NCBI GenBank assembly: GCA_002633005.1
Contig: NMRA01000289.1
Span: 274,382 to 338,381 of the forward strand
Source of the DNA: Phoronis australis
Taxonomy: Eukaryota; Animalia; Phoronida
DNA length: 64,000 bases
Direction of reading: 5' to 3'
Part shown: positions 8,515 to 39,914 of the stretch, one piece after another
Layout: each line of letters begins with the position of its first letter
How positions within the stretch are numbered: the first letter of the stretch is position 1
Translations under genes and position numbers: made by a program
Notes under the pieces: model-generated
What the model saw: the letters and a program-made list of their open reading frames with translations, nothing else
The model's database searches: none
Told to the model about the DNA's origin: nothing

Positions 8515-8808
8515 ATGTTTTCTTACTCGATTTTTATAGTTTTAATTGCCTTGGTTCATCATTCTGTTGGGAATACTTACACACAACATGAAAAATGTTC
8601 CAAAGACGCTGCAGTTTCAACAGGTGCCATCTCCAAACACCAAGTAACGAACATTCAGACGTGTCAGAAACTATGCGACGACAATACCAACTGCGCTGGG
8701 TTTAATTATGAAGTTCGCAGGAAGGCAAAGTGCGTGCTGAACTCGGAAGTGGCCGGAAACGGTGGGACGCGACTATCTTATAAACCGTCTTACACTTACG
8801 TAGAGAAG
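8515..8808 (+). CDS. Paralog 1 exon 1 (signal peptide + PAN/apple domain)
   Basis: 294 nt, ends GAGAAG|gtattc, the same donor position as in the other two paralogs. Confidence 0.88.
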
Positions 8809-11800
8809 GTATTCAGCACATGAATTACATTCCTAAGTTTGTAGTAAATTGATTTAATCATAAAACCGTTCTTTATTGCTTACATGCCATAACTGTGATT
8901 ATGAAAGGGCATCATCTCTATTTTTGCTAATCAGCAATCAAATTTAGATTATTTTTCAAAGTAAAAATTTCATATGTATTTTATTGTTGGGTTGAAAATA
9001 CAAAAAATGTTAATCAACACGATTGAAAGTAATTTTGGACTACGTTTACTTTACAGGTAAAAGAAAATTCCACGACGTTCGAGACGACGTCATGCAAAAA
9101 CTTTTCAGGTAAGCGAATAATTAAGTACTTACGATAAGCAGAAACCGACACATTCTATGTTGATATAGATATGTATGCGGGCATAGGTAGATATACACAT
9201 ACATAAATTGATCAGTGCAAGGCTGAGTTATGAAGCATGACTTTTTTGAAATTTATCCTAAATTTTTTTATAGTTTCAACTATTTTTCTAGTAAATTATG
9301 AAATAATCGAATTTTCAACTGCTGAAAAACAAAGAAATGGGGTAGAACACATTAACACCTACTTATAAGTTCAGTTCTCTTTTTCTTCAGATTAATTTTA
9401 ATACAAGCAACAATTGAATTAGTAAACGTTTACAATGGGTAGCTCCATCTGGACGACTCTCCGAGTCTGGTTTTCCCTAATGCCAGTGTAAACTGCAAAT
9501 CAATTGCCTTTACTGTAAACAGTTGCATAGCACTTTCCAACGGAATCATATTTCATCTATCTTATATGAGCTTATATGGGAAGCTGCGCTTATGTCCGGA
9601 AATAGCGCACGCACTCATACGTTAAATACTTAAAAGGGCAACTAAACCACACCTTGTTAATAATCTACATTGAAATAAAGAAGCACCCGCAACAAAGTGC
9701 AATTGTAATAACTTTTAAGCTGTGCTGCAACAAATCAAAAATCTAATTAGTGGAACATCTCATAATAGAGGGGGGGGGGACAGTTTGGCCTAACGCATAC
9801 CCAGATTCCAGACGTTATCTTTGATACTGCTTTTCTAAACAAGTATACTGTAATAATATGAGAAATCAGATGAGACGAGATAGGACATAAGATTAAATAG
9901 AATGAGTTAAATGATACAGGAAGTTCATGGTTTAGTTTTGTATATAATTGAGCTAATGAAGATAATGTAGTTTAAAAACGGCCATTCATATTTAAGATAC
10001 ATATAATAAGTAATGTCAAACAAAACATTTGTGATTCTACTGAAACTTAACAATTTTTCCTACGTCGGTATTGTTGGATATCTTAACTACAGTCTATGGT
10101 TGAGCTCCGTAGATACAACAATCTTGGGATGGAGGCTTGAGTGATCGTGTGCTTTGATTGCATATATTACGTAGCAAACATTTGAATAACCAGTTTGTTA
10201 ATAATGTACAGTATCTCTAAAAATAGATTAGAAATGTTTTCTAGTCTTGACAAGTGCTGACATGTCGTTATTCGTGTGGTGTATCATTACAGGTATCACG
10301 CAGCTGTTCATCTATTTCGTTGGGTGTAGTCCGTTACGTTAGAATTTGATTAATTCTGCTATCTATAAGGAAGTATTTGATTTAAAGCATTGAATAAGAA
10401 AAAAAATGTTTCCACCAACACACCTGTAGTTCTAAAGCATTAATCAAGGCAAGGAATTGACATGATTTTTCCAAAGAAATTGAGATTTCACCCTTACCAG
10501 ACTAACATTTTAAAATATTCATGGTGTATTTCATTGAAATAACCGAGCTGTGGTGTGGTTCATTATCAGCATGCAGACCAATATGGAAGTTTGACAATTA
10601 CGAACTTGTGGTCAACCGACGCGACACATATGGGTGGTGGGGCAGAGACTGCTGGCCCCACGCGACAGACGAGTACTGGTATGAAATGACACACTACGAC
10701 ACCAGAAATCACTTCTACGAGTACATCAGTCTGGGAAACTTCAAAAGTGATTATTATACTGAGTAAGTATTCCGCATTCAACATTCAATTCGCGAAGTTT
10801 TTATTTTTTGGCCATTCTAAGTGGCTTCGTGAAGTTCACGCCAACCATCCCTACACGCGGAGAAGGCCGCGGTCGCTTAGCTGAAACAAATAAATAAATG
10901 CAGAAATGCTAGCGTAGCCACGTTAGACAAGATATGAAAATACGTCATTTTAGTAATTTTTGGCATTAGTGGAACGGAATATGTTTTCTTCAAAATCTCC
11001 TCATTAACTCTTTAGTAGATCAGGCATACCTAATTGGTTACATTAAATATGGATTACTAAAAAAATAAATGCACCTTCTGTTTTTTTCTGTAATATCTAA
11101 GACATTGATTAAATGAGCATACATGCATATGTTCAGTAGAAAATTCTTGACAGTTTGATATGAATTTTTGGTATTTTGTCCTAAGATGAGTGAATTTGGT
11201 TGTAATACAAAACAAAGCAGTTGAACAATGAGAGTCATAAAATGAATGGTTCGAAGTCATTGGTTTGATGTTTCAGAAAGATGGCTTTAGTTTGAAATGG
11301 TTCGGTTGCATTTCATTCCTGTTAAAGTCTTAAACAATGAATTCGTGAAATAAACTCTAACAAATTTACCTCGGTGTTTTCTTCTATGATACTGGTATTC
11401 CATATACGCCGTCAAAAGGAACTGAAGGGTCACTCGCCGTTGACTTTGAACGGCTCGATATATTTGTATCTTAGGCATTTTCCTATAGGAGGCAGAACGT
11501 CTTTCGTAATTTCATTTGTTATTTGCAGCATAACTCTGCCGTTCTATTGTGATGGCGCGAACTACATTGTTTACAAGCGTTTCTTCTACTGCGCTGGACA
11601 TAATACGCCTAAGATCTACACATATGACTTGGATAAGAGATCACAGTCGACGACCATTTCATTGGACAGCGTCGAAGGAAAACAAGCCGGGTATAGAGAT
11701 AGATGCCGGTACCACTGGGGTGGACATTCCGACATTGACATGGCTAGTGATGAATTCGGATTGTGGGTGATATGGGGTGTCTATGCAGAGTCTTGTAGAT

Positions 11801-38300: not shown

Positions 38301-39914
38301 AACTTTTTACAATTTCCACTTCTCTAAACGGTACCTGGATTCGTCCCAAGAATTCAAGACTCAACAAGGACGTGGTCTCAAGATGGCGGCACTTCAATGT
38401 CTTAGTAGACAAAAGCAAAGGCTAATTTTATGGACTCAACTTACTCAAAACAACTTCAAGGAACCATTTGTGGCAATCGTTTCCCATTTAGTCCACAAAA
38501 CTGCCGTCAAAACTGATCCACCCCATTTTATTTATTTTTGGGGCGCTACAAGGGCCTGTCCCGTGATATTAAACCAAACAACACCGGAACTAACTAATGT
38601 AAATAACTGCCGTGCATGCGCGGCACAACATTTTAGACCACTTTCAGAAGATCACACAACTTCAGTTAAGTTTCTAAACATTCCAGAGTCATGCTCAACT
38701 AATATCTTATACTAATGAAATCCACTGAAGGAAGTCATAAAGGGTCCGAATATTGTTTCAAATGAAAACCATGTTTCTAAATGTTCGAAGCTCCACTGCG
38801 TCGATGCGTCATTTTGCGACTCGCTTTCTCAATCGATTGTTCAGTTGTGGCCAAGACAGGTACAATTTATTACCTTTGAAGTGGTTTATTTGCACCATTG
38901 TGCCTGGGCCTACGTGTGTTAACGCTTATATTTATTCTAACATGATTCACTAAAACAGCCCTAACAATTCACTTAATAATTCAAACGTGGTTTTGAAAGT
39001 GTGAAGCTGCATTGCACCAACTCTTCGTTTAAGACTCGTTTTCTCACTTCTTTCTTCTTAAACAAATATTCTTTCGTCTGATGGAAACAGCTCATTAGGT
39101 ATACACCAAATCGAAGTATTAAGAATCATGTCCAACTGTTCATGTGTTAAGTTCTTAGAAATCTGGGGCTAAAACAGAGGATACGCTTACGTTTTGGTAG
39201 TACAACTCACGTGCCCGGGCTCATGTGTGTTAACGTTATTTTACATTTTTTTAAGAAAAAGAGCGTCTTTCATACTTTGGTTATGTTATTTACAGCATAA
39301 CTCTGCCCTTCCATTGCGATGGCGCGAACCACATTGTTTACAAGCGTTTCTTCTACTGCGCTGGATATAACACGCCCAAGATCTATACGTATGACTTGGA
39401 TACGAGATCACAGTCGACGACCATTTCATTGAACAGCGTCGAAGGAAAACAAGCCGGCTACAGAGATAAATGCTCGTACCACTGGGGCGGCTACTCCGAT
39501 ATTGACATGTCTAGCGATGAATACGGGTTGTGGGTGATATGGAGTGTCCATGCAGAGTCTTGCAGATTTGCCATTAGTAAGCTGGACCCCGACACCAAGA
39601 CAATCATCAAAACATGGTTTGCCCCGCAAGGCATCGAACTGGATCACAACGATTACGGCAATGCGTTCATGGTATGTGGCAACATGTACGTCATGAACCA
39701 TTATCACACACAGAATACATTTGTTCGTTGGATCTATTATACCGGAAACGATACATGGGTGGAAATTTCTAGCAGTGACTCCAACCGAATCATCCTTCAG
39801 AATAACTACCAGCATAACTGTTACCTCAATTACAGCCCACGTGACAAGATGCTTTATTCCTGGGAGAATACCCACCATACTCGTTATCAAGCTCATTTCA
39901 AAGACTGGTCTTAA
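26094..39914 (+). CDS. Secreted PAN/apple-olfactomedin protein, paralog 3 (385 aa); join(26094..26387,26910..26961,31096..31288,39296..39914)
   Basis: Signal [41 protein letters not shown] motifs as in paralogs 1 and 2. Exons 294+52+193+619 = 1158 nt, open, canonical splice sites; intron 3 is 8007 nt. Confidence 0.9.
26910..26961 (+). CDS. Paralog 3 exon 2 (52-nt linker [17 protein letters not shown])
   Basis: ttacag|GTG...TCAG|gtaagc. Confidence 0.85.
27159..27194. repeat. (AGAC)n microsatellite
   Basis: Directly visible. Confidence 0.9.
31096..31288 (+). CDS. Paralog 3 exon 3 (N-terminal OLF)
   Basis: tattag|TATGC...ACTGA|gtaagt; 193 nt. Confidence 0.87.
31327..33135 (+). mobile_element. 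Helentron/HINE-like non-autonomous element with internal tandem repeats, in intron 3 of paralog 3
   Basis: Starts TTTACTTGGCGGAA; three copies of AATTCCGACAAGTATGTTG (31349-31468); ~160-bp repeats containing CAAAATGGCGG (31487-31800); two ~670-bp tandem units (31806-32474, 32475-~33135). The family assignment is inferred from this structure. Confidence 0.55.
34145..34362. mobile_element. MITE
   Basis: ~25-bp inverted ends ATATTCAGCCTACATCGGCAG / CTACCGATGTAGGGCTCAATAT. Confidence 0.6.
36752..36846. repeat. (GT/GC)n microsatellite
   Basis: Directly visible. Confidence 0.95.
39296..39914 (+). CDS. Paralog 3 exon 4 (OLF core and C-terminus)
   Basis: ttacag|CATAACTCTG; frame open from [15 protein letters not shown] to AHFKDWS*; 619 nt. 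Confidence 0.91.

Follow-up and report, generated by a model that had tools for sequence, protein, structure and literature searches.

The 64-kb window of Phoronis australis DNA analyzed here, by which we mean the whole stretch (GC 39%, three single Ns), carries three tandem paralogs, c1, c2 and c3, each of which joins a PAN/apple domain to an olfactomedin (OLF) propeller. We propose that they encode predicted secreted PAN-spacer-OLF proteins that would serve as compact two-ended linkers in the extracellular matrix or in mucus, a reading that in our judgment stands about evenly balanced between right and wrong. The PAN-OLF pairing is real, brings together two familiar modules, is apparently undescribed, and occurs in corals too.

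Six-frame reading and self-comparison placed all three copies on the + strand, with four exons apiece. Exon 1 (8515-8808 in c1, 16245-16535 in c2 and 26094-26387 in c3) encodes a signal-peptide-like hydrophobic N-terminus and the PAN/apple core, which has five cysteines in c1. Exon 2 (9057-9108, 17100-17151 and 26910-26961), 52 nt long and with N-glycosylation sites in c1, supplies a spacer and a cysteine kept in all three copies, exon 3 (10570-10762, 21246-21438 and 31096-31288) encodes the start of the OLF propeller, and exon 4 (11529-12036, 23797-24415 and 39296-39914) its remainder and the stop codon. In c1, exon 4 is broken by one N (11976), which replaces 111 bases that c2 and c3 have; the frame is kept across it, with 37 residues of c2 and c3 absent at that point. 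All nine introns run GT..AG, with phases 0/1/2 in every copy, and the spliced products are 348 (c1), 384 (c2) and 385 (c3) residues long, those of c2 and c3 being fully open. Protein identity was 87.6% between c1 and c3, 74.9% between c1 and c2 and 74.5% between c2 and c3, and identity between the paralogs dropped at all splice sites, being 0.68-0.97 inside exons and 0.15-0.62 outside them (40-nt windows). The first-pass annotation had described three same-strand, four-exon genes with identical intron phases, two of them open and c1 open apart from a gap, that arose by tandem duplication, and the coordinates, open frames and matching exon order, strand and phases bear this out. Its signal-PAN-linker-OLF layout stands as to the domains and their order, but exon 2, with its conserved cysteine, is no plain linker. 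A tblastn search found no fourth PAN-OLF copy within the 64-kb window. The third intron of c3 (8 kb) holds two tandem pairs within 31486-33132, one of 158 bp and another of 660 bp whose members are 83% alike.

The ratio of nonsynonymous to synonymous divergence (dN/dS, Nei-Gojobori) for the mature proteins was 0.14, 0.14 and 0.13 in the three pairs (bootstrap limits 0.09-0.23, with upper limits of 0.18-0.23); by region it was 0.16-0.18 for the PAN exon and 0.08-0.28 for the OLF exons, and synonymous divergence (dS) between copies was 0.34-1.10. The trio are old working paralogs in which both modules are conserved under purifying selection. The low dN/dS together with these dS values therefore speaks against alleles, against pseudogenes and against a receptor under rapid diversification, and dS by itself rules out allelic duplication. 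Neither diversifying selection nor a hypervariable region, as in a FREP-like immune receptor, was seen in the comparison, which comprised three paralogs only.

Pfam PAN_1 (PF00024) was detected above its curated cut-off in all three copies (E = 1.8e-9 in c1, 8.9e-8 in c2 and 1.7e-8 in c3; 32-38 bits vs a cut-off of 21.4), and the four core PAN cysteines are invariant between the window copies and the coral PAN domains described below. The PAN fold is present in the model for c3, which matches the N domain of HGF (Z = 9.3, root-mean-square deviation 2.4, 74-75 residues aligned) and also the apple domains of kallikrein, factor XI and microneme lectins (Z = 8.1-8.3); among 48,161 chains, all eight matches with Z of at least 8 (range 8-10) were PAN/apple entries, as judged by title or by recall of the entry. 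In the alignment with factor XI apple 2, Cys28 falls on the first cysteine of that domain, and Cys111, encoded in exon 2, lies 83 residues after Cys28, which we take to be apple-domain spacing; the two may form the end-to-end third disulfide of the three-disulfide apple subtype, but the alternative partner of Cys111 is Cys143. The PAN domains of the window copies have isoelectric points of 8.85-9.04, vs 5.9-6.9 for their OLF domains, and in this comparison, which covered window and coral PANs, all five PAN domains from corals were likewise basic (8.6-9.3). HGF N is reported to bind heparin through basic residues (PMC8249616).

Only 17 residues separate PAN from OLF. The N-terminal hydrophobic segment is signal-like, as judged by hydropathy alone, and no membrane-like segment was found past the N-terminus in the copies (maximum 19-residue hydropathy 0.8-1.0). 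The stop codon directly follows OLF and the sole hydrophobic segment is N-terminal, at odds with both the transmembrane-plus-collagen layout of colmedins and the lectin plus G-protein-coupled receptor (GPCR) of latrophilins; in place of the long coiled coil that precedes OLF in amassin, noelin and myocilin, there are PAN and the spacer. The PAN-OLF protein is a compact two-module unit, short in its spacer and without coiled coil or membrane anchor, and we infer that it is secreted.

Exon 4 scored as OLF (PF02191) in all three copies (E = 3.1e-31 in c1, 3.3e-37 in c2 and 8.9e-42 in c3; 109-144 bits vs a cut-off of 23.9), and exon 3 of each matched OLF positions 9-55 below the cut-off (E = 3e-4 to 4e-3). 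The exon-4 model (predicted local distance difference test, pLDDT, 91.7) showed about four blades, exon 3 lying outside the model, in keeping with a five-bladed propeller, and Foldseek aligned it with solved OLFs at template-modeling (TM) scores of 0.80-0.86 and 27-35% identity. The domain search and structure prediction that the first-pass annotation had suggested as checks thus returned both modules, PAN_1 and OLF, in every copy and matched both models to known folds. The motifs DExGLW and CG, which are OLF motifs (PMC4206993), and the cysteines of the N-to-C disulfide are present in all three copies.

The mature proteins contain 13 (c1 and c2) and 14 (c3) cysteines, with C355 in exon 4 as the extra one of c3. 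By analogy, pairs 50-73 and 54-60 would close the PAN core and 117-307 would form the canonical OLF bond; pairs 187-201 and 239-269 would each lie in predicted top loops. Closure of Cys28 with Cys111 may leave Cys143 free, and c1 and c2 keep one unpaired cysteine whichever way Cys28, Cys111 and Cys143 pair. At the calcium site, c3 has the triad Asp250-Asn302-Asn358 and c2 the same, the third position of c1 falling in its gap. This Asp-Asn-Asn triad, common to 4 of 82 other OLFs, is not the Asp-Asn/Glu-Asp triad of calcium-binding OLFs of the myocilin and noelin type. The myocilin variant D478N is reportedly calcium-free. For myocilin itself the triad is given as Asp380/Asn428/Asp478, with Asp478 mutations described as stabilizing and D478S as not binding calcium (PMC6719662). 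Because of the Asp-Asn-Asn triad and the behavior of these Asp478 mutants, the window OLF likely binds calcium weakly or no longer at all. The predicted top loops hold eight histidines, vs 2.0+/-1.8 in the 82 other OLFs, one of which reaches eight (a post-hoc test); the whole domain holds 12-13, vs 5.1+/-3.0 (4 of 82 others reach 12), and Tyr, Trp and His together make up 19-20% of it, vs 12+/-2%.

RNA evidence came from three raw runs of matching species label (X5, X6 and X7), about a fifth of each being read; reads were placed in the c1 region at 82% likeness, with paralog reads mixed in, and exon joints were counted from three reads up. In X7 (33 reads in the c1 region) depth lay over all four c1 exons, and in X6 (21 reads) over exons 3 and 4; all of this exon depth was first-mate minus, the mark of + strand RNA in most stranded libraries. 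The remaining depth in the c1 region lay over two short repeat-like intron stretches and, in X6, the 3' flank. Exon 4 of c2 had depth in X5, X6 and X7, and the 3' flank of c3 was present in four X7 reads. Two loose ends in X7, at 11975 and 11977 (three reads each), ran on into mid-exon-4 sequence; compared by eye, the first differed from c3 at 4 of 30 bases and from c2 at 6 of 30, which fits c1's own missing piece or another paralog, and the second was identical to c3. Because RNA reads continue with mid-exon-4 sequence, the N at 11976 is likely an assembly gap, and a true deletion in c1 is disfavored by the X7 reads running past it.

Six X6 reads crossed an exon 3-to-4 junction, in the predicted phase, of a paralog differing from c1, c2 and c3, and the PAN-OLF family therefore extends beyond the window. 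DNA contig depth, when summed (130-420 over exons vs about 41 over introns), hints at a larger family as well, though it gives no copy number. This fourth expressed paralog has a different exon-3 end and was better represented in X6 than c1, so paralogs may differ between samples. High-copy repeats at 15590-15700 (between c1 and c2) and 17640-20500 (c2 intron 2) were transcribed from both strands in the RNA runs.

A HMMER search with exon 4 returned 501 relatives; among the best 150, none exceeded 41% identity over most of the query, the exon-4 OLF of c3. When 101 relatives of at least 300 residues (from 153 proteins) were scanned, PAN was present in one, P0057 from Dendronephthya gigantea. 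Used as a query, P0057 gave 87 matches, five of them with both PAN and OLF: three Dendronephthya PAN-OLFs and two PAN-EGF-OLF clusters (P0200 from Stylophora pistillata, and P0198). Other partners of OLF included CBM14 (Owenia), TSP1-FN3-ZP and Kunitz-LDLa-thyroglobulin (amphioxus), collagen, Ig and bacterial MopE stalks, and because so many different partner domains were seen, we regard OLF as a freely shuffled module. The Branchiostoma proteins P0137 and P0150 show OLF with TSP1-FN3-ZP, and with LDLa, WAP, thyroglobulin, Kunitz and NTR. Word-index searches gave two weak negatives, with exon 4 finding 3 matches among 109 candidates from the longer proteins, none of them close, and exon 1 none among 68 candidates; ESM Atlas held generic OLF and PAN clusters only, no related locus was found in viral contigs, and none of 587 pattern matches in metagenome contigs was a related locus. 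The Lingula protein P0276 (376 residues), a PAN-OLF candidate by size, lacks PAN. In agreement with the first-pass annotation, which knew of no described PAN-OLF class, none is named in the literature searched (subscription articles and supplementary architecture tables being outside its scope). That annotation's idea of a lineage-specific family holds in part, in that the subfamily looks lineage-restricted by its sequence matches, but the architecture is also found in corals.

To place the window OLFs, 216 near-complete OLF domains were reduced to 84 by near-duplicate removal and to 60 by hand, and a tree was computed in IQ-TREE (LG+G4), with the incomplete c1 excluded. The window pair fell inside a 23-row clade (support 95/93) with Owenia, Lingula, Nucella, Argonauta and Bradybaena as named members and about 11 rows without a name. 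Anthozoan OLFs formed a separate clade (100/99), with the PAN-bearing ones in two places among PAN-less ones. The Cys187+Cys201 pair was found in 21 of 24 rows of the window's group, a group defined from a tree that itself includes those columns, and in none of 8 anthozoan and none of 50 other rows. A single clade of all PAN-bearing OLFs was rejected by the approximately unbiased test (p-AU = 1e-5), and the PAN domains of window and corals are 15-23% identical. Because the window OLF falls among those of molluscs, annelids and brachiopods and has the same additional cysteine pair, its fusion with PAN was likely independent of the coral PAN-OLFs. Against this, one clade of the window with all eight anthozoan OLFs was not rejected (p-AU = 0.278), the branch leading to the window OLFs is long (1.04), and the tree, computed without a mixture model, carries a long-branch warning, and for these reasons we call independent origin likely rather than demonstrated. 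Horizontal transfer from bacteria was considered, with MopE-OLF proteins giving the top BLAST scores (33-34%), but was rejected because the tree places the window elsewhere. Bacterial-type OLFs (P0001, P0003, P0007, P0008, P0013 and others, with MopE, Ig or type IX secretion system (T9SS)-tailed stalks) adjoin the anthozoan OLF clade (94/75); together with the reported 10-20 OLF copies in corals and absence of OLF from two anemones (PMC6214176), this points to a possible bacteria-coral link.

In the linker reading that we favor, the best fit among the functions suggested in the first-pass annotation, exon shuffling in a lophotrochozoan-type OLF lineage likely produced the fusion, separately from that in corals, and the fused gene would then have spread by tandem duplication. 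By analogy with HGF N on heparin, the basic PAN likely anchors the chain on a matrix protein or a polyanionic glycan, and the disulfide-braced, His-rich top face of OLF likely binds a protein partner, probably without internal calcium; the unpaired cysteine may give rise to disulfide dimers. Several findings weigh against this account. For the three introns of c1 or c2, X6 and X7 (21 and 33 reads) yielded no exon joint at the threshold of at least three reads, and the reads over 8000-25000 were repeat-dominated, with no exon joints; because no joint of these copies passed that threshold, we infer the PAN-to-OLF junction, and with it the presence of all four exons in one transcript. The RNA level in the runs is low, which is hard to square with a bulk constituent of mucus in the material sampled. 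Confidence in the PAN model is modest (pLDDT 71.5, with 32-43 for the other four models), and the assignment of top and bottom faces and of disulfide pairings is based on secondary structure and analogy instead of coordinates.

It is possible, if doubtful, that the proteins are instead soluble innate-immune recognition factors or opsonins, with PAN on microbial glycans, OLF on a blood-cell receptor and the copies widening specificity. Tandem copies and at least one further expressed paralog outside the window (the six X6 reads) would suit such a role, as would the match of the PAN model to microneme lectin apple domains and the links of amassin, OLFM4 and a C. elegans OLF protein to immunity (PMC4206993); PAN and spacer are also more divergent between copies (66-86% identity) than OLF (81-91%), and the predicted top loops are enriched in variable sites (24/87 vs 17/118, p = 0.02), though loops vary more in any protein. 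However, dN/dS lies far below 1 in all mature regions and pairs and no hypervariable block was seen among the three copies, and the immune recognition proposed in the first-pass annotation is weakened, in a variable form, by values of 0.13-0.14. We consider unlikely a metal-cross-linked structural secretion, in which the His-rich face would bind Zn, Cu or Ni and cure a tube, chaeta, shell matrix or glue while PAN anchors to polysaccharide. The histidine count and the Tyr, Trp and His content of the OLF domain are what such a secretion would show, the chitin-binding CBM14-OLF protein of Owenia (P0275) belongs to the same OLF clade, and PAN is listed among the domains of phosphate-mineralizing lophotrochozoan proteomes (PMC13425148, which makes no mention of olfactomedin); yet histidine occurs in all three copies at just 5 of the 20 His-bearing OLF columns, and the low RNA level argues against it as well. 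Quite unlikely, too, is a bolder proposal, in which PAN-OLF proteins would form a class of their own, so far undescribed, of soluble linkers with two binding ends. Such linkers would have been built independently at least twice, perhaps three times (in this lineage, in soft corals and, with EGF inserts, in stony corals), PAN being basic in every case, and here the calcium site would have been swapped for a disulfide-braced, His-rich top face that binds a transition metal or switches with pH, making the protein a metal- or pH-gated glycan-to-protein cross-linker.

An amassin-like clotting factor that forms disulfide networks between body-cavity cells appears decidedly improbable. The proteins are predicted to be secreted, c1 and c2 have an odd number of mature cysteines and c3 has an extra one, and amassin clots coelomocytes through disulfide aggregates (PMC2173732), but the N-terminal half of amassin is described there as a coiled coil with several interchain cysteines, where the window proteins have PAN and their spacer, one free cysteine would allow dimers at most, and the amassin triad is Asp-Glu-Lys (PMC6719662) rather than Asp-Asn-Asn. 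The short spacer leaves no room for a coiled coil, so the window proteins are not amassins, and the clotting role suggested in the first-pass annotation loses ground accordingly, lacking both a coiled coil and several free cysteines. Least probable of all is that the PAN exons and OLF exons belong to separate genes, or that the cluster is partly an assembly artefact of allelic haplotypes in tandem; that no joint links exon 2 to exon 3 in the c1 and c2 regions, and that the assembly has single-N gaps, would be expected in that case. Separate genes fit poorly with an exon order, strand and set of phases repeated identically three times over, with exons 3 of c2 and c3 that have no upstream in-frame start, and with a same-size PAN-OLF protein in RefSeq from another animal, and the dS values and the introns, which are unalignable between copies, are far beyond those of alleles.

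Elsewhere in the window, the sole further host gene from a partial scan of open reading frames (ORFs) was represented by a TMEM141 family exon (PF15110, E = 1.4e-8) at 61124-61342 on the minus strand. A 39-bp minisatellite of about 78 copies (57286-60351) contains the N at 58070 and gives long repetitive ORFs on both strands. A repeat family that retains remnants of THAP domains, probably transposon debris, has several copies, at 1005-2422, 52936-56788 and 63589-63871 (PF05485 at 56294-56785, minus strand).

To our knowledge, the OLF proteins described so far either oligomerize through coiled coils or reside in membranes. As a small soluble protein whose natural Asp-Asn-Asn triad matches an engineered myocilin variant, PAN-OLF would offer a simple system for studying OLF top-face ligands and the dispensability of the calcium site, and repeated PAN-OLF fusion in unrelated animals, if true, would mark a recurring extracellular linker design. 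The binding partners of most OLF domains are described as unidentified (PMC6719662). The surprise is moderate, as both modules are well known and freely recombined among invertebrate proteins, and tandem clusters of genes for secreted proteins occur often.

The closest counterparts in layout are the automatically named PAN-OLFs of Dendronephthya gigantea (the 'noelin-like' XP_028411438.1, P0057, with P0180 and P0181), which likewise consist of a signal-like N-terminus, PAN_1, a short spacer and a C-terminal OLF in 382-390 residues, with a basic PAN. Identity to the window proteins is about 34% in OLF and 23% in PAN, and they differ in belonging to the anthozoan OLF clade, in having no extra cysteine pairs and in that the first apple-type cysteine is absent in the alignment; because each of the three lies on a contig of 903,390 bases, these paralogs are probably tandem too. 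The stony-coral proteins P0200 and P0198 also combine PAN and OLF in one secreted-type chain, but with 105-137 residues including EGF between the modules, an Asp-Asn-Asp triad and an OLF of the other clade. Among the OLFs of lophotrochozoans, those of Owenia (CAH1786525.1), Lingula (XP_013404485.1), Mya, Nucella, Argonauta and Bradybaena share the clade of the window and its Cys187+201 pair, and P0100 and Lingula P0039 have the Cys239+269 pair in common with it; the 363-residue Owenia fusiformis protein (CAH1786525.1, P0275) has a similar plan, with a signal, a small disulfide-rich module (chitin-binding CBM14) and OLF. Unlike the window proteins, none of those scanned has PAN, and identity is about 30-35%.

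Among characterized systems, sea-urchin amassin resembles the window proteins as a secreted invertebrate protein that ends in an OLF and has cysteines that can bond between chains, and is described as differing in its coiled-coil N-terminal half, its disulfide networks, its triad and its lack of PAN (PMC2173732, PMC6719662). The OLFs of noelin/OLFM1, myocilin and latrophilin (PDB 4XAT, 6QHJ, 4WXQ and 5FTT) share the propeller, the motifs and the N-to-C disulfide cysteines, but the proteins carry coiled coils or a lectin with a GPCR, and their third calcium ligand is Asp, whereas the window has Asn as in myocilin D478N (PDB 6OU2). The lectin-OLF tandem of latrophilin is the nearest solved two-module analogue of the window protein. 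On the PAN side, HGF N, factor XI/plasma kallikrein and the apicomplexan microneme lectins have the four core cysteines and fold of the window domain (Z = 8.1-9.3), at 11-22% identity, whereas the window PAN is single and fused to OLF.

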